This document shows positions 2,003-16,367 of a stretch of DNA of 17,082 bases, in pieces. The notes under the pieces are model-generated. The model searched no databases and was not told the DNA's origin. It saw nothing but the letters and a program-made list of their open reading frames with translations. Within the stretch, counting starts at the first letter, position 1; each line of letters begins with the position of its first letter. Source of the stretch: Chthonomonadales bacterium (GTDB lineage: Bacteria > Armatimonadota > Chthonomonadetes > Chthonomonadales > Chthonomonadaceae); NCBI GenBank assembly GCA_038217285.1, contig JBBQPO010000124.1, positions 1-17,082 of the forward strand. Direction: 5' to 3'. Position numbers and translations under genes: made by a program.

Positions 2003-3364
2003 ATGCTTACTAACCTTCATCTGCGCAACTTCAAGTCGTGGGCCAATACTGGAGACATCGCACTCAAGCCAATCACCGGTTTTTTCGGTGCTAACAGCTC
2101 GGGCAAGACCAGTCTTTTGCAATCCCTACTGTTGCTCAAGCAGACTTCCGAATCAGCGGATCGAGGTCTGATCCTTCAATTCGGGGAGAAGAACAGTCTG
2201 GTCAACCTCGGCGACTTCCGCAGCGTCATCTATGGTCACGCGGTCGAGAACGAGTTGATATTTTCCCTGGATTGGGACCAGAAAAAGCCTATTGTGGCGA
2301 ACGACCTGCGACGAACAGTGCTTCAGAGCCAAAATATCGGCTTTACGACGCATGTGCGAGGCGAGAACGGCAATGGAACTGCCCTGCGGTTGACAGTACC
2401 GGATATGGCGTACCGAGTTGGTAATGGGATTTTTGGCATGCGCCGCAGAACGGAAGGCACAGGTGTATATGACTTATATACAGATAGGACTGGGTTTCAG
2501 TTCTTGCCCCAACGTGCCTTTCCCCTTCATGGTCCCATTAAATGCTATGGTTTCCCCAAAGAGGTAAGGCTCCGTTACATGAATTCCGGCTTTCTTTCGG
2601 ATCTTGAACTGGCCTTTCAGGAGCAACTCGAACAGATCTATTATCTGGGACCGTTACGAGCCAATCCTGAACGCACATACACTTGGTCGGGCGCGCAACC
2701 TTCCGATATGGGGCAGGCAGGGGAGCAGGCTATCCATGCCATCTTATCGTCCCGCGATAAAGGCGAAACCATTTCCAGGGGCAGAGGGCGGTCACGGGTT
2801 ACTTTAGAGGCGTATGTCGCGGAGTGGCTCCAAAAACTGGGGCTGATCGCGGAGTTTCGTGTCGAGCCTATCGCGGAAGGCAGTCAGCTTTTTCAGGTCA
2901 AGGTGCGGAAGGTGAAAGGGGGAACGGAGTCCCTGATAACGGATGTCGGCTTCGGGGTCTCGCAGATTCTTCCGGTCATTGTGCTCTGCTTCTATGTGCC
3001 GGAAGGCTCGACGGTAATCCTGGAACAGCCGGAGATCCATCTGCATCCCGCCGTTCAGGCCAATCTGGCAGATGTGCTGATCGATGCCTACCGGAAACGT
3101 GGCGTACAGATCATCGTGGAGAGCCATAGCGAACATCTCTTACGACGCCTTCAAAGGCGTATCGCAGAAGAGAAACTGAGCAGTGAAGAGGTCGGACTAT
3201 ACTTCTGTGAGGCCGGTGCTAAGGGTTCAACGCTCACGACGCTGGATCTGAACGCTTTTGGAAACATAACGAACTGGCCGGAAGATTTCTTCGGCGATGA
3301 GTTCGGAGAACTGGCTGCCACACAAAACGCAATAATCAAGCGTATGCAGCAAGCCAAGCCATGA
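2003..3364 (+). CDS. ABC-type/AAA_21-like ATPase with C-terminal DUF3696
   Basis: N-terminal LxLxNFKS, Walker A GANSSGKTS, signature-like VGFGVSQ, Walker B VILEQPE, H-loop VESHSEH, C-terminal NWPEDFFG. RBS AGGAGG at 1990-1995. Confidence 0.88.
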   Translation: MLTNLHLRNFKSWANTGDIALKPITGFFGANSSGKTSLLQSLLLLKQTSESADRGLILQFGEKNSLVNLGDFRSVIYGHAVENELIFSLDWDQKKPIVANDLRRTVLQSQNIGFTTHVRGENGNGTALRLTVPDMAYRVGNGIFGMRRRTEGTGVYDLYTDRTGFQFLPQRAFPLHGPIKCYGFPKEVRLRYMNSGFLSDLELAFQEQLEQIYYLGPLRANPERTYTWSGAQPSDMGQAGEQAIHAILSSRDKGETISRGRGRSRVTLEAYVAEWLQKLGLIAEFRVEPIAEGSQLFQVKVRKVKGGTESLITDVGFGVSQILPVIVLCFYVPEGSTVILEQPEIHLHPAVQANLADVLIDAYRKRGVQIIVESHSEHLLRRLQRRIAEEKLSSEEVGLYFCEAGAKGSTLTTLDLNAFGNITNWPEDFFGDEFGELAATQNAIIKRMQQAKP

Positions 3365-3864
3365 AGAAATCCGTGATCATCGATACAAATGTAGCAATCT
3401 TGGCAAACAACCGGTCTTCTGCTACTGACATTGACTGCTTGAATGCCTGCATTTTAGCGCTAACCCAGGCTCGGAAACAGGTAATACTGATGGACGATGC
3501 TTCTCGTATCTTTATCGAATATAGGCGACATCTGTCACATTCCGGGCAACCTGGGGCGGGCGATGCCTTCTTCAAATGGTTATGGAATAATCAGGCGACC
3601 GTGCGGCACTGCCGCCTTATCTCGATCACACCGCTTGAGAGCGATGACGCAGATTTTGAGGAGTTCCCAAAGGACCCCGAACTCGCCACATTCGACCGGA
3701 GCGACCGCAAATTTGTGGCCGTCGCGCTGGCAAGTGGCACCGCACCCCTGATCTTGAATGCGACGGACACCGACTGGTGGATCTACCGCAAAGCGCTGGA
3801 ACGCAATCGAGTGCATGTGCAGTTTTTATGCCCCGATCTCATGCGCGATAAGGATTTTGAGTGA
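3361..3864 (+). CDS. PIN-like domain protein (putative RNase/toxin)
   Basis: N-terminal IIDTNV, then DRSDRKFVAVA and NATDTDW, giving the acidic active-site pattern of PIN folds. ATGA overlap with the ATPase. Confidence 0.75.
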   Translation: MKKSVIIDTNVAILANNRSSATDIDCLNACILALTQARKQVILMDDASRIFIEYRRHLSHSGQPGAGDAFFKWLWNNQATVRHCRLISITPLESDDADFEEFPKDPELATFDRSDRKFVAVALASGTAPLILNATDTDWWIYRKALERNRVHVQFLCPDLMRDKDFE

Positions 3865-6458
3865 TGGCAATTACGAATTACGAGCGTGTCGGCAAAGCGC
3901 TGGAACTTGTTAAGACCGGTCTCGCTCCCTATGTAGAACGTGAACTGGAGTCGCAGCATGGTAAATACTGGATTACGGTGGTCACAGCCAACTGGCGCGA
4001 CGATGTGGCCTGGAATGGTGACAGCGACAATCCGCATCTTGATGCCGCCCTGCTTCTGCGCCTGATGTGGGAGCAGTGGAACGACGTCTTCCGCAAGACA
4101 TTGGGCTACGCGGAGCGCTCCCTGGTAAGCGAGATACGGGATGCGCGCAACAAATGGGCGCACCAGAACTCTTTCTCCTCCGATGACGCCGACCGTGCCC
4201 TCGATTCGATGGCGCGTCTGTTGACTGCCGTCTCCTCGCCCCAGGCCGACGAGGTCGGCAAGATGAAGATGGAACTGCGCCGCGTCATTTTCGACGAGCA
4301 GATGCGCAGCGAGAAGCGCCGCTCGGCAGGCACCGTTATCGAGAGCCAGGTCACCGGTACGCTCAAGCCGTGGCGCGAAGTGGTCAGCCCCCACCGCGAT
4401 GTGGCGAGTGGCCGCTACCAGCAGGCAGAGTTCGCGGCGGATCTCTGGCAGGTGCACATCGGCGAAGGTTCGGACGAGTATCGCAAACCCCCGGAGTTTT
4501 TTCGGCGCACCTATCTGACCGACAGTCTGCGCAGGCTCCTGGTAGATGCTGTCTGCCGGATCGCGGGCGACGGCGGAGACCCGGTCGTACAGCTCCAAAC
4601 GAACTTCGGCGGCGGCAAGACGCACTCTATGCTGGCGCTCTACCACCTGTTTTCCGGCGTTCCCACCCAGGAGCTTGCCGGGGCGGACGCGGTGCTTGCC
4701 GAGGCGGGCGTCGAGAATCTTCCTGAATTGCGGCCGGTGGTGCTGGTCGGAAACAAGATCTCGCCGGGCAACCCGAGCGTGAAGGCGGACGGGACGGTGG
4801 TGCGTACGCTCTGGGGCGAGCTTGCCTGGCAGCTAGGCGGCAGGGCGGCCTTTGACGTCATTCGCGCTGACGATGAGATGGCGACCAGTCCCGGCGACAA
4901 ACTGCGCGAGCTGTTCAATACGTACGGCCCCTGCCTTATACTCATCGACGAGTGGGTCGCCTATGCCCGGCAGCTCCACGATGCCGCCGATCTGCCGGGT
5001 GGAAGCTTCGAGACGCACTTCACCTTTGCTCAGGCGCTGACGGAGTCGGCGAAGCTGGCGAAAAACTGTCTGCTCGTCATTAGTCTGCCCGCATCGGATA
5101 CGTCCGGTTCGCAGCATGCCCGTGCCGATGATGTCGAAGTCGGCGGCGAGCGTGGTCGTGCCGCCCTGGACCGCCTGCGCAATGCGGTTGGGCGCGTGGA
5201 GGCGTCCTGGCGACCTGCGAGCGCGGAAGAGAGCTTCGAGATCGTCCGTCGCCGTCTGTTTGAGCCGATGGTGGAGCAGGAGCAGTTCGTAGCGCGCGAC
5301 ACTGTCGCGCGCGCCTTCTTCGACCTCTACCGAACGCAGCATTCGGAGTTTCCGCCTGAGTGTCATAATTCGGACTACGAGCAGCGCCTCAAGGCGGCCT
5401 ATCCCATTCATCCCGAAGTGTTCGACCGCCTCTATACGGACTGGTCCACCCTGGTGAAGTTTCAGCGTACACGTGGCGTTCTGCGCCTGATGGCGGCCGT
5501 CATTCATAGTCTGTGGGAGAAGGGCGACCGCAACCCGCTCATCATGCCGTCCAACATCCCCATCGATGACCAGCGCGTCCAGTTCGAACTAACCCGCTAT
5601 CTGCCCGAAAACTGGGTTCCTGTCCTGGAAAAAGACGTGGACGGCCCGAACGCGCTGCCGCTACGCCTGGACGGGGATGTGCCGAACTTGGGCAAGTTCG
5701 CGGCCTCGCGGCGCGTGGCGCGGACGGTCTATCTTGGCTCCGCCCCGACTGCGGCGGCAGCCAATCGAGGGCTGGAAGACCGGCGCATCAAGCTGGGCTG
5801 CGTTATGCCCGGCGAATCGCCTGCCGTCTTTGGGGATGCCCTGCGCCGCCTGAGCGCCGCCGCGACCTATCTCTATCAGGACGGGGCGCGCTACTGGTAC
5901 TCGACCCAGCCTACTGTCACCAAACTTGCCGAAGACCTGGCCGAACAACTGAAACGCGATCCCGACCAGGTGACGAAAGAGTTGGATAAGCGCTTGCGGG
6001 CCGACTTGAAGCAACCCGGTGATTTCGTCCGTGTGCATCCGCTGCCACAGTCCGGTCAGGATGTAGCAGACGACCTGGAGGCGCGACTGGTAGTGCTTGG
6101 TCCGGACTATCCCTACAGCAAAGAGCCGGGAAATGCGGCTGAAAAAGCCGCGAAGGAGATACTCCAGAAACGAGGCAGCGCCCCTCGCCTCTTCCAAAAT
6201 GCGCTGGTGTTTCTTGCGGTCGATAAAATACGTCTGCAGGATCTGGACGAAGCGGCTCGGCGCTACCTCGCGTGGGAGAAAATTCTATCGGAACGGTTGA
6301 TACTCTCTTTAGACCCCCATCAGGTCAAACAGGCGGAAACTCAGAAGGCCTCGGCAGACAGCGCCGTCACGGCACGTCTCCCGGAAGCCTATCAGTGGGT
6401 CAACAGCAACGTCAGCGTGGAAGCCAGGGGGGATGTTCGGGGTGGCTGGCGGGTCTAA
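3864..6458 (+). pseudogene. Swt1-like HEPN + DUF499 AAA+ ATPase, C-terminally truncated
   Basis: Start MAITNYERVGKAL (TGATG overlap), HEPN RxxxxH motif RNKWAH, LKPWREVVSPH, EFAADL, Walker A QTNFGGGKTH, Walker B LILIDEW, YPIHPE, FQRTRGVLR. Family-like sequence appears to stop at PEAYQW (6398), followed by 19 residues that are mostly antisense to the neighbouring gene. Confidence 0.82.
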
Positions 6459-9619: not shown

Positions 9620-10909
9620 TTATCGACCGAGATGCGTCAGCACGGCGGCGGCGGTACGCTGACCGGAGACAAGCGCTCCGTTCAGAGAACTGGACACCGT
9701 GATCTCGCCGCCAAGAAAGAGGCCCTCGGTATCGGTTTCGGTGGCAGGCAGGCGGTCGAAGATTCCCATCGGCTGGCGAAACTGTGCCCACGGGATCCGA
9801 TAGACCTTGAGGAGCTGCCATTCGTCCGGGTTGGAGTCCTGAAAGTGAGGCGCGATCTCGCCTTTGGCGCGGCGGGCCAGCTCCTCGTCCGGCAGGAGAG
9901 AGTTCCCCAGAACGGACACCGAGAGCAGATATTTGCCCTTGGCCGCATACGAGGGCGCGACGTTCGACATCATGGCGGCGTTGTTGACGAGCGGCTGGCC
10001 CTCGGCATGCGTATTCGGTTCGGCGAAGAGCAGAATCGACTTACTCGCCTTCAGCGGCTTCGGCACGAGAAAGTAGAGACAGGTGACGGAACGATACTCT
10101 GTCGGCAGGCGGAGTCCGGTCAGTCGGGCCGCCGTTTCGCCATCGGTCGCGACGACGACCGCATCGGCCTCGACTGTCTCGCCGCCTTCGAGTCGTATGC
10201 CCGTCGCCCTTCCCTCTTCCCGCAGCAGTTCCACGACAGGACTGTTCAGATGAACGGTATCCGGCGTCAGGTCTTTCGCGATCTGGCGCGGAATGGCGCC
10301 CATCCCCTTTTCCGGGACGGCGGTACGGCCTTCTATGAGCATCTTCCAGATGAAGCCGAACATGCGTACGCTGGTCTGCATACTATAGTCGAGGAATATG
10401 CCGGCGAAGAACGGTCGAATGAAGCGATTGAGGAATTTGTCGGTGAAGCCGTACTCGCGCAGATAGTCTTCCATCGACATGTCGGGGTATTCGGAAATCT
10501 CTTTCAGGCTGACCTTACGAATATCCCGCCGCAGGCGCAGGACATTCATCTTATCCCGCAGGGTTATCAGCGGAGTGAGCGCGGACTCCAGCAGTTGACT
10601 GGGCTGGCGCAGCGGATCGCCCAGACTGTAGCGCTCCCCGCGCCAGAAGACGACCGCTCCGGCATCGAAATACTGAAGCTTGAGCGCTTCCAGGTCGAGC
10701 TCCTGCTGGACAGCGGGATAGGCCGTGAGTAGCACCTGAAAGCCCCGGTCGAGCCGACAGTTCGACACGATGTCTGTACGTACTCGCCCCCCGATCCCAT
10801 CGGATGCCTCGTAGAGATGGGCTTCTACACCCGCCCGTTGCAGCGTTCGGGCGCAACAAAGGCCCGCCAGCCCGCCTCCCACCACGACAACCTTCTGACC
10901 TTCCGCCAT
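9620..10909 (-). CDS. FAD-dependent oxidoreductase (amine oxidase / protoporphyrinogen oxidase-like)
   Basis: VVVVGGGLAGL, EASDGIGGRVRTD, LDRGFQVL, C-terminal FLGGE...SLNGALVSG. Start reassigned to ATG 10909 (MAEGQK) with GGAG upstream. Confidence 0.9.
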   Translation of the reverse strand: MAEGQKVVVVGGGLAGLCCARTLQRAGVEAHLYEASDGIGGRVRTDIVSNCRLDRGFQVLLTAYPAVQQELDLEALKLQYFDAGAVVFWRGERYSLGDPLRQPSQLLESALTPLITLRDKMNVLRLRRDIRKVSLKEISEYPDMSMEDYLREYGFTDKFLNRFIRPFFAGIFLDYSMQTSVRMFGFIWKMLIEGRTAVPEKGMGAIPRQIAKDLTPDTVHLNSPVVELLREEGRATGIRLEGGETVEADAVVVATDGETAARLTGLRLPTEYRSVTCLYFLVPKPLKASKSILLFAEPNTHAEGQPLVNNAAMMSNVAPSYAAKGKYLLSVSVLGNSLLPDEELARRAKGEIAPHFQDSNPDEWQLLKVYRIPWAQFRQPMGIFDRLPATETDTEGLFLGGEITVSSSLNGALVSGQRTAAAVLTHLGR

Positions 10910-10933
10910 TCCACGCTCCACAAGACATATTTT

Positions 10934-11078
10934 GTGACACTCCCCGTGGACTAAAGTCCAGGGGCTTCTAACACTCGTTAGCAACATGCCGGGTGTCAGG
11001 CAGGACAGAACCCGTTTCTCCGAGGGCTACCCCAGGATCCGGCTGTTACCCGTCTGCCCTTCCGCACCTGAATGCCGT
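10934..11078 (-). ncRNA. Stand-alone IS200/IS605 right-end / TnpB omega-RNA-like element
   Basis: Minus strand ends GAAGCCCCTGGACTTTAGTCCACGGGGAGTGTCAC, a subterminal hairpin plus TCAC end motif. It has further stems whose G-U pairs work only on the minus strand, and a possible UGACAC/GUGUCA pseudoknot. No tnpA or tnpB is present in the window. Confidence 0.7.
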
Positions 11079-11083
11079 AGGAG

Positions 11084-11092
11084 AGTATACCA
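11084..11092 (-). promoter_or_regulatory. Extended -10 promoter (TGgTATACT) upstream of the omega-RNA-like element
   Basis: Plus-strand AGTATACCA at 11084-11092. No convincing -35 at 17-bp spacing. Confidence 0.55.
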
Positions 11093-11102
11093 CTCCCACC
11101 GC

Positions 11103-11131
11103 TTGCAATGTCGGGGCAGAGGCGTTACAAT
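11103..11131 (+). promoter_or_regulatory. Sigma70-type promoter of the BolA-like gene
   Basis: TTGCAA-N17-TACAAT, followed by RBS AGGAGG (11141-11146) and ATG at 11153. Confidence 0.7.
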
Positions 11132-11152: not shown

Positions 11153-11467
11153 ATGACAACAGAGGAGTTGAGCGCGCTGCAGACGCGCCTGGAAGAGGTT
11201 GTACGGCAGGGTTGGGGCTTACGTGACCCGGACGTTCAGGTGTCCAGCGTGCTGCGAGACGGCAACAAAATCGACATGACGGTGATCTCGGCTCTGTTCT
11301 CCGGTCTGGAGGGCCGGGAACGGGAGGCCTTCTTCTGGCCCGTCTTCGACCCTCTCCCGAAATACGATCTGCTCTATATGACCTACTGCCTTCTGCTCAC
11401 GCCGGAAGAGGCCGTCCGTATGGGCGCTCCCTCCCTCGGCAGAGACAACGCGGACGACTGGGCGTAA
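11153..11467 (+). CDS. BolA-like small protein
   Basis: VISALFSG...ERE...LLTPEE resembles BolA V(I/V)SxxFxG...R...TPEE. Strong RBS supports the start at 11153. Confidence 0.6.
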   Translation: MTTEELSALQTRLEEVVRQGWGLRDPDVQVSSVLRDGNKIDMTVISALFSGLEGREREAFFWPVFDPLPKYDLLYMTYCLLLTPEEAVRMGAPSLGRDNADDWA

Positions 11468-15149: not shown

Positions 15150-16367
15150 ATGTCAAGCAGGAAGTATGAGACTACACATCCTTGGATGGATTTCAAATTA
15201 GATCTTCAGCGCGCCCCCTACACTTTGTGGATGCTGCTGGGTGAGGCCGTTTCTAAGTGTGAACATATAGCTGGGGTGCCGCTCTCACCTGACTACGCTC
15301 AACGTTTACATGCAATCGATCTTGCTAAAGGCGTATGGGCGACTACAGCAATCGAAGGTAATACCCTCTCGGAAGAAGAGGTCAAGAAGCGCATCGAGGG
15401 TAAATTGCCCCTTCCGCCTTCAAAGGAGTATCTCGGTCAAGAAGTCGATAATATAGTATCGGCATTTAATGTAATAGCAAGGCGTCTCGAAACAGAAGAA
15501 TTTCCGCTTCTTAGCGTTGAACTGATTAAACAATTCAATCGATCTGTTTTGGATAAACTCGAAGTTGCACCGGAGGTAAAACCAGGGGAGGTAAGAGAGT
15601 ATTCAGTAGGGGTAGCACACTACCTGGGTGCTCCTGCGGAAGATTGCGAATATCTTCTGGAAAAGCTATGTGCCTGGTTAAATGAACCTGAATTTTTACC
15701 TGATGGTGAAAATAGCATGATGTATGGGATACTGCGCGCTATTGTAGCTCATCTTTATCTCGCTTGGATACATCCGTTTGGGGATGGAAATGGACGCACA
15801 GCACGACTTATGGAAGTTCAAGTTCTGCTTGCAACTGGAGTTCCGTCACCTGCAGCACATCTTCTTAGTAATCACTACAATCTAACTCGAACAGCATATT
15901 ACCGACAACTGGACGCAAGCAGCAAACCCGGAGTTGGGATTTTACCTTTCGTCCAGTACGCTATCCAGGGTTTCGTAGATGGACTAAAGGAACAGATTCA
16001 TACCATTCGGGAACAACAATGGGAGGTTGCGTGGAGGCAATTCATATTTGATAAATTTTCAGGAATGTCAACTGAAACAGATAAGCGCAGAAGAGATCTA
16101 GCACTTGAACTTACAAAAGCGACCCTGAATGACTATAACGAACTGATACCATTGAACAAGATTCGGCAGGTAAGTGCCACGGTCGCGTTGTTGTATGCTA
16201 ACAAAACATACAGGACGATATTACGCGACATCGACATCCTGAATCACCTTCAACTCATAAAGGTTACCTCAAAAGGAGTAAGGGCAAAAAGAGAGATGAT
16301 CCTACAGTTCCTACCTCGTAAAAGAAATCAGGCGACAACAGATCCCGCCATTAAAGACACTAAGTAG
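15150..16367 (+). CDS. Fic-family AMP-transferase, class II type, with probable C-terminal winged HTH
   Basis: Canonical HPFGDGNGRTAR motif and N-terminal inhibitory motif TTAIEGN. C-terminal ..RTILRDIDILNHLQLI.. is HTH-like. Visibly AT-richer than the flanks. Confidence 0.92.
   Translation: MSSRKYETTHPWMDFKLDLQRAPYTLWMLLGEAVSKCEHIAGVPLSPDYAQRLHAIDLAKGVWATTAIEGNTLSEEEVKKRIEGKLPLPPSKEYLGQEVDNIVSAFNVIARRLETEEFPLLSVELIKQFNRSVLDKLEVAPEVKPGEVREYSVGVAHYLGAPAEDCEYLLEKLCAWLNEPEFLPDGENSMMYGILRAIVAHLYLAWIHPFGDGNGRTARLMEVQVLLATGVPSPAAHLLSNHYNLTRTAYYRQLDASSKPGVGILPFVQYAIQGFVDGLKEQIHTIREQQWEVAWRQFIFDKFSGMSTETDKRRRDLALELTKATLNDYNELIPLNKIRQVSATVALLYANKTYRTILRDIDILNHLQLIKVTSKGVRAKREMILQFLPRKRNQATTDPAIKDTK

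Follow-up and report, generated by a model that had tools for sequence, protein, structure and literature searches.

The locus lies in a window of 17,082 nt, the whole stretch of DNA analysed here and equal to contig C124 in the assembly of a Chthonomonadales bacterium (G000, 6.2 Mb in 459 contigs, with an estimated completeness of 95%). It is situated in a divergent intergenic region of 244 nt, between a minus-strand gene encoding a flavin-containing amine oxidoreductase of 429 aa (9620..10909; PF01593, E 9.7e-54) and a plus-strand ORF of 104 aa (11153-11467) that has no Pfam match and is preceded by a divergent promoter (TTGCAA-17-TACAAT, 11103-11131), a layout also observed in the congener G001. 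The element that a preliminary description of this DNA had presented as an orphan, promoter-driven omega-RNA corresponds to the 5' UTR of the amine oxidase gene. All the motifs named in that description (the TGgTATACT box, the CUAAC/GUUAG stem, the terminal hairpin, the end and the internal UGACAC) are present where it placed them, and no transposon gene lies beside the element, as it had noted. Elsewhere in the window, a defence-like run on the plus strand (2003-6458) begins with an AAA_15/AAA_21 ATPase that bears DUF3696 and continues with a Swt1-like HEPN protein to which DUF499 is fused, and a Fic/DOC gene is located at 15150-16367.

The amine oxidase gene is preceded by an extended -10 element, TGgTATACT (11084..11092, minus strand), identical in two congeners, G001 and G002. 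A consensus-based promoter scan did not list it, as there is no -35 element at 16-18 nt. Counting G000, 25 of the 41 genomes of the family have an orthologue of the gene, and GGGTATACT or GGGTATAAT is found 5' of the orthologue in 6 of the 11 examined loci of other genera, in which the leaders measure only ~30-45 nt. TGgTATACT is thus the ancestral promoter of the amine oxidase gene itself, and older than the transposon-derived module described below, because it is conserved before orthologues with short leaders in other genera; its earlier assignment as a promoter serving a separate RNA is not upheld. The long leader is specific to the genus of G000.

At the other extremity of this leader, the 20 nt lying in guide position (AAAAUAUGUCUUGUGGAGCG, 10914..10933, minus strand) include a GGAG (10919-10916) that sits 6 nt 5' of the amine oxidase start codon. 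Sequence homologous to this flank precedes the start codon in both G001 and G002, and the flank is best read as the ancestral 3' end of the mRNA leader, with its Shine-Dalgarno sequence. The 5' part of the leader (10999..11078, minus strand) is a genus-specific segment forming a long imperfect hairpin (AGGGCAGA.../...UCUGUCCU) that is common to G001 and G002. The helices CGGCAU/AUGUUG, UCAGGU/GCCUGA and AGGGCAGA/UCUGUCCU, attributed previously to a scaffold of 145 nt, are complementary stretches of these 80 nt that the two congeners also possess; they have no place in the omega-RNA family model, and only ~61-65 nt of the proposed scaffold appear to be transposon-derived, the rest being the leader of the genus.

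Two further observations concern this leader. A segment within its 5' part (GCGGAAGGGCAGACGG, 11049-11064, minus strand) matches the first codons of the gene (GCGGAAGGTCAGAAGG, 10891-10906) at 14 of 16 positions, a level reached by 0.8% of 2,000 shuffles, and may represent the degenerate remains of a duplicated gene start, resulting from an old rearrangement of the leader. In several genera, AATCCTGT(T) repeats are present just 5' of the Shine-Dalgarno sequence (loci L157 in G411, L010 in G001 and L011 in G002), and only a diverged copy of the motif remains in G000; these repeats may represent a conserved operator or repeat.

Between the genus-specific segment and the Shine-Dalgarno region lies the module of interest (10934..10998, minus strand), a probable solo, 5'-truncated right end of an IS200/IS605 (TnpB) element carrying the 3' module of an omega-RNA scaffold, recognised by its match to a covariance model and its absence from the congener leaders. 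Its right limit is the transposon end (...GUCAC|), and its left limit is uncertain by ~4 nt (10994-10998). The first strand, UGACAC (10993..10998), pairs with GUGUCA (10935-10940) in a long-range, pseudoknot-type interaction; it is followed by a hairpin, CUAAC-GAGU-GUUAG (10968..10981, with a 5' arm at 10981-10977 and a 3' arm at 10972-10968), that matches the internal stem CUCG...CGAG of the family via compensatory changes, and by the terminal stem-loop CCCC-UGGAC-UUUA-GUCCA-C-GGGG (10942..10964, UUUA loop at 10955-10952), equivalent to stem 4. The module ends in GGGGAGUGUCAC at 10934, its end segment being GAGUGUCAC (10942-10934).

Taken alone, the 65-nt module folds into a closing helix and two hairpins (-24 kcal/mol, z -2.54, with 3 of 200 shuffles equal), compared with a z of -1.24 for the whole 186 nt, for which 21 of 200 shuffles were as good. 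Better-than-chance folding is limited to the 3' module. The opposite strand of the whole region reaches a z of -1.08, close to the -1.24 of the minus strand, and the argument that G-U pairs specify the strand carries little weight for the region as a whole. UGACAC/GUGUCA is the closing helix both in the minimum free energy fold and in the RNAalifold consensus; GACAC/GUGUC is paired in all 13 aligned sequences, invariant within the subfamily to which the module is compared below (subfamily C), and, by eye, the long-range pairing of the GACAC type covaries between the families of G000. The pairing of the internal UGACAC with the terminal GUGUCA, seen earlier as partly competing with one stem, corresponds to the conserved long-range or pseudoknot pairing of the family.

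The genome of G000 contains 14 matches to the TnpB zinc ribbon (PF07282), five of which lie in open frames of 368-410 aa. The 3' ends of its tnpB copies are built alike: AAG is followed by a G+C-rich stem starting with CC and capped by UUUA or UUCA, and after the return strand comes a short tail closing with TTGAC, TCTGAC or GUCAC, exactly where copies diverge. Among these ends, the nearest to the candidate is that of the element on contig C62, which has a TnpB ORF of 401 aa. A descriptor for this design retrieved 26 places in G000, versus 13 in a reversed-genome control, and 17 were good hairpins by eye, including the candidate.

When 400 genomes of the phylum were searched with a pattern derived from the foot and tail of the candidate hairpin, a single further genome matched; there the pattern closes a truncated tnpB that retains a zinc ribbon and a D.NAA motif. 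In the genome_contigs collection, the same pattern retrieved at least 120 loci with covarying stems, mostly from Chloroflexota MAGs, many of them at contig ends, as is the case for repeats. Among the matches listed, 40 loci had at least 900 nt upstream, and the longest suitable ORF was taken for each, leaving out six loci with ORFs under ~100 aa. TnpB domains were detected in 15 of the 34 ORFs scanned and an IS200 Y1 transposase in two; at least five more loci (L034, L050, L064, L066 and L081) display TnpB motifs by eye, either as remnants or in a different frame. Upstream of the rest lie unrelated genes, so that orphan ends of this kind are common. In L071 and L076, the right-end hairpin comes directly after an IS200-type Y1 transposase gene and not after tnpB. 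Three other matches, all from one Anaerolineae MAG (L045, L051 and L061), share a common downstream flank (tgctgacctagc...) without tnpB, and have the appearance of another short repeat that imitates this hairpin.

In subfamily C, the scaffold 5' of the hairpin consists of a stem-loop, UAGUU, CCGG-CGGACAC-CCGG, CAAGUAG and CUCG-loop-CGAG, to be compared with the candidate from GACAC onward (UGACACCCGGCAUGUUG, then CUAAC-GAGU-GUUAG). A covariance model (R1) built from 12 right ends of this subfamily, the candidate being left out, scores the candidate at 51 bits (E 8e-11 in 46.8 kb with filters off, 1.1e-8 per genome), which makes it the top match in G000. The end of the C62 tnpB element scores 31.5 bits and the other Armatimonadota copy 30.6 bits, and no match was obtained with R1 in the leaders of G001 and G002 (L010 and L011). 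Over G000 and 40 family genomes, only the candidate and the C62 end reach an E value of 0.001 (among 100 scored first-look candidates per genome).

As the pattern used for fishing came from the candidate itself, ~20 of the 107 model positions match by construction. Among the 18 bases just 5' of this pattern, 16 match the consensus, a level reached at only 2 of 12,420,072 genome positions, and the candidate has a length of 64 nt, compared with 64-66 nt for the modules of subfamily C, to which it is 78-82% identical. An HMM restricted to the upstream part (nhmmer) gives 8.7 bits (E 4.6 genome-wide, seventh in the genome) and aligns only from the loop of stem 1 on; independent support for the homology rests on the 16/18 count and the equal length because this HMM is not significant. 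The family structure itself comprises four helices, namely stem 1, the long-range GACAC/GUGUC pairing, an internal and a terminal stem, with 93.9% of positions paired, compared with 36-53% in slid controls, and 8 compensatory pairs (0 of 500 shuffles as high); two pairs of helix 3, the internal stem, have changes on both sides, and the candidate keeps the PK, P3 and P4 helices. The terminal hairpin and its ...GUCAC end are a genuine IS200/IS605 (TnpB) right end and 3' module of an omega-RNA, as the preliminary description had recognised.

Several simpler comparisons did not detect this relationship. It escaped a BLAST search with the element in its own genome. Against the 14 tnpB ends, blastn-short gave a best E value of 1.2 and missed it, and Smith-Waterman alignment placed the C62 end in the top 1.07% of 1,493 random genome segments, which is not significant after 14 tests. 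No Rfam family was matched in the window or the region, either at the gathering score or at E values up to 10; this blank is uninformative for omega-RNAs, because the same outcome was obtained on 8 real tnpB loci.

What is missing from the module is as instructive as what it keeps. Neither the 5' strand of stem 1 nor the hairpin 5' of it has a counterpart at the locus, and the first 35 positions of R1 align poorly; the flank is able to replace the lost strand in 3 of its 4 pairs, which may be due to chance. The immediate neighbours are the amine oxidase gene and the 104-aa ORF, and none of the 14 PF07282 matches is located on C124. For the left end, 12 elements of subfamily C were delimited (TTAC or CTAC before the element, and a hairpin resembling that of the right end), and three HMMs built from left ends of 11 distinct elements gave no match at the leader or in G001 and G002 at E values up to 100; these HMMs do find the left end of C62, weakly. 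The absence of a tnpB remnant and of a left end, reported previously, is thus borne out by these searches. The left junction of the module reads ...CUGAC, not TTAC/CTAC. In metagenomes, elements of subfamily C (57 loci) occur both as full-length copies of ~1.3-1.4 kb and as gene-less ones, whose copies share 319-352 nt. Several copies ending at TCAC had been put forward as a possible support for a guide-RNA gene; BLAST and covariance model searches indicate a single copy in G000 and none in 40 family genomes.

The would-be guide fares no better, since no second site with at least 14 of 16 matches to the 20-nt flank exists in G000. A single 12/12 seed was found at C230:10131 (plus strand), in an acetyl-CoA-synthetase-like coding sequence. 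The identity extends over 15 nt, CAC and then nt 1-12 of the presumed guide; ~0.01 match of this kind is expected by chance, and the match is probably a coincidence. As for the protein partner, the TnpBs of subfamily C (L177, L201, L204, L209 and L216) are 22-28% identical to any TnpB of G000, and those of sister subfamilies 36-45% identical to the C62 TnpB; judging from these identities, G000 appears to encode no close relative of the TnpB with which the scaffold co-evolved.

Comparison with relatives delimits the module in another way. Among 60 relatives, the congeners G001 and G002 are the only DNA matches of the region, with the amine oxidase at 81-83% protein identity. Both share an identical GUGGUAUACUCUCCUAC promoter and leader start, related first 45-80 nt and a related Shine-Dalgarno region; the module is absent from both, and their leaders measure ~130 and ~100 nt versus 168 nt in G000. 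In MAFFT alignments the sharing runs to ...CUGCCUGAC, so that the genome-specific segment amounts to 61-65 nt, with an ambiguity of 2-4 nt. This absence would fit a gain of the module in the G000 lineage as well as its loss in the congeners. Closer relatives, at 95-96% identity, keep the module with 1-2 substitutions, which affect unpaired positions and one of which is toward the family consensus; in more distant metagenomic relatives, 62-79 nt of different sequence stand where G000 has 105-157 nt. Contigs from four DNA runs display the module either present or replaced, with no clean empty-site joint. Substitutions in the relatives fall at equal frequency within the module and around it, and the module bears no apparent sign of constraint. 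We infer that it arrived as, or decayed from, a larger element in the G000 lineage.

What, then, is this module? We consider it likely that it is a solo 5'-truncated right-end relic located in the 5' UTR of the amine oxidase gene, and co-transcribed, if at all, as a part of its leader. The last 61-65 nt of a right end of TnpB-type IS200/IS605 would have landed between the amine oxidase promoter and the Shine-Dalgarno sequence, with loss of the left end, of tnpB and of the 5' half of the scaffold. The remnant would be neither mobile nor a complete guide-RNA gene, because the rest of the element is gone; if the promoter fires, the module would simply ride in the mRNA leader, and the sequence called guide would be ordinary flank, as at any right end. 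As far as sequence comparison can tell, a guide-RNA function of this relic is unlikely, and we infer that it has none today.

The reading put forward in the preliminary description, a working orphan omega-RNA, would require that a TnpB from elsewhere, most plausibly that of C62, binds the leader transcript, either whole or processed into a shorter piece, and then uses it as a guide RNA or blocks or cuts the mRNA at the Shine-Dalgarno sequence. We judge it unlikely. The intact PK, P3 and P4 helices, a flank that can mimic most of the missing stem-1 strand, a conserved promoter 5' of the module, and the retention of the module in relatives at 95-96% identity are all consistent with it, and the genome does not lack TnpBs, with its 14 zinc-ribbon matches (five in open frames of 368-410 aa), among which the C62 element has the only other end matched by R1 and a TnpB that sister-subfamily proteins resemble at 36-45% identity; gene-less elements whose omega-RNAs are served in trans are moreover described in PMC10055086. 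However, the promoter predates the module, the 5' stem-1 strand and the upstream hairpin are missing, and in ISDra2, as described in PMC10097598, it is stem 1 with a triple helix that contacts the protein. The divergence of subfamily-C TnpBs from those of G000 (22-28% identity), a guide with no second target at 14 of 16 matches or better in the genome, substitution rates without any excess of constraint inside the module, and the absence of the module from two congeners that have the same gene also argue against it. A variant of this idea, to which we give an even lower probability, is that of a TnpB-binding handle exapted in the mRNA leader: a TnpB from elsewhere would grip the PK/P3/P4 core and clamp the adjacent 16-20 nt with the Shine-Dalgarno sequence, the flank supplying a substitute stem-1 strand, so that the amine oxidase mRNA would be repressed or cleaved, or the RNA used as a guide. 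If true, this would be a case of early omega-RNA domestication, in which the guide RNA is captured rather than the protein.

Two other readings appear very improbable. One is a non-autonomous miniature element of the PATE type, mobilisable by TnpA in trans, also envisaged previously. Gene-less derivatives of 320-350 nt are numerous in subfamily C, G000 possesses four Y1 transposase genes and an internally deleted mini-element on C63, and the start of the leader, CTCCTAC, contains a CTAC that fits the target motif of the family. Nonetheless, the HMMs detect no left-end hairpin at the leader or in G001 and G002 (E up to 100), the left junction reads ...CUGAC and not TTAC/CTAC, the module is single-copy in G000 and found in none of the 40 family genomes, and its 65 nt are far shorter than the 320-350 nt of the mini-elements of the family. 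That CTAC, together with a weak similarity 5' of GACAC, also suggested that the whole leader might be one old element inserted after CTAC; this is improbable, as it received no support from R1, from the upstream-only HMM or from the left-end HMMs. The second is a leader with a cis-regulatory role in the host, be it as an attenuator, a protein-binding site or an unknown riboswitch, without any transposon link, and its chances are just as slim for the region as a whole. A long 5' UTR directly 5' of the Shine-Dalgarno sequence, a hairpin within the 5' 80 nt with a variable tip and a stem retained across three species, and AATCCTGT-type repeats near the Shine-Dalgarno sequence in relatives would suit such a leader. 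Against it stand the specific match of the 3' module to a tnpB-linked family, the lack of this module in congeners with the same gene, and the absence of an Rfam match (at the gathering score or at E up to 10) and of a U-tract terminator, none being found at the element. The 5' 80 nt may still have a cis-regulatory role of this kind.

The favoured reading, that of a solo right-end relic, has consequences for annotation. An IS200/IS605 right end that has decayed within a host leader would place a nearly self-contained RNA module directly 5' of a ribosome-binding site, under the control of a host promoter, and relics of this sort can readily be misread as new riboswitches or as orphan guide RNAs. 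Useful diagnostic features are the AAG-CCCC...UUUA...GGGG-AGUGUCAC end, the GACAC pseudoknot strand and the comparison with module-less relatives. They could also furnish the starting material for domesticated guide RNAs, although this is not seen to have happened here. No solo right-end relic in a host 5' UTR was found described in the literature searched, where one paper uses the term 'orphan' for CRISPR arrays.

Parallels also come from G000 itself, in which four other solo, 5'-truncated right ends (C5:2390, C23:7725, C168:8959 and C280:1038) measure ~45-140 nt, lack tnpB and end at a normal boundary, like the candidate; they differ in belonging to other families, with TTGAC or TCTGAC ends, of which the genome also contains full-length or partial tnpB copies. 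The left flank is (T)TCAC in three of these four fragments, which start after an internal TGAC or AGAC. Together with the CUGAC junction of the candidate, they may point to aberrant cleavage at internal sites. Left ends from G000's own pairs C9/C19 and C173/C63 start near ...AAT|ATGAC and ...GAAC|ATGAC; they yielded no target motif and did not confirm the idea that TCAC is the target preceding the solo fragments. At C63:11720, the TnpB element C173:11447 has a gene-less derivative with an internal deletion, comprising ~230 nt of left end, including a perfect hairpin of 17 bp, and ~170 nt of right end, and it constitutes a PATE-like element in G000.

Gene-less IS200/IS605 derivatives carrying omega-RNAs that are served in trans are known from the account given in a 2023 preprint by Meers (PMC10055086), and the PATE-like elements of subfamily C (L162/L197, L166/L178 and L174/L215) share with the candidate a gene-less right end of the omega-RNA type for which TnpB could act in trans only. 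These elements keep their left end and the TTAC/CTAC motif, measure 320-350 nt and are repeated, whereas the candidate has none of these features. In TldRs, nuclease-dead repressors derived from TnpB, the guides are encoded beside the tldR gene. The candidate resembles their guide RNAs in having an omega-RNA-like scaffold off the transposon, and they would serve as the model for a domesticated use of any kind; it differs from them in having no neighbouring tldR, as Pfam searches (PF07282) identified no adjacent nuclease-dead tnpB-like gene in the window. Finally, the reRNA of ISDra2 comprises, in the description of Nakagawa 2023 (PMC10097598), four stems and a pseudoknot, with the 5' pseudoknot strand located between the two strands of stem 1 and a UUUA tetraloop on stem 4. 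Compared with a right end of this type, the candidate is a single copy in a host mRNA leader, devoid of tnpB, of the 5' strand of stem 1 and of all that lies 5' of this strand; it has the same UUUA terminal stem-loop ~20 nt from the end, the same pairing of the tail and a scaffold that ends at the boundary of the element, and its structure agrees with the ISDra2 architecture of four stems and a pseudoknot.
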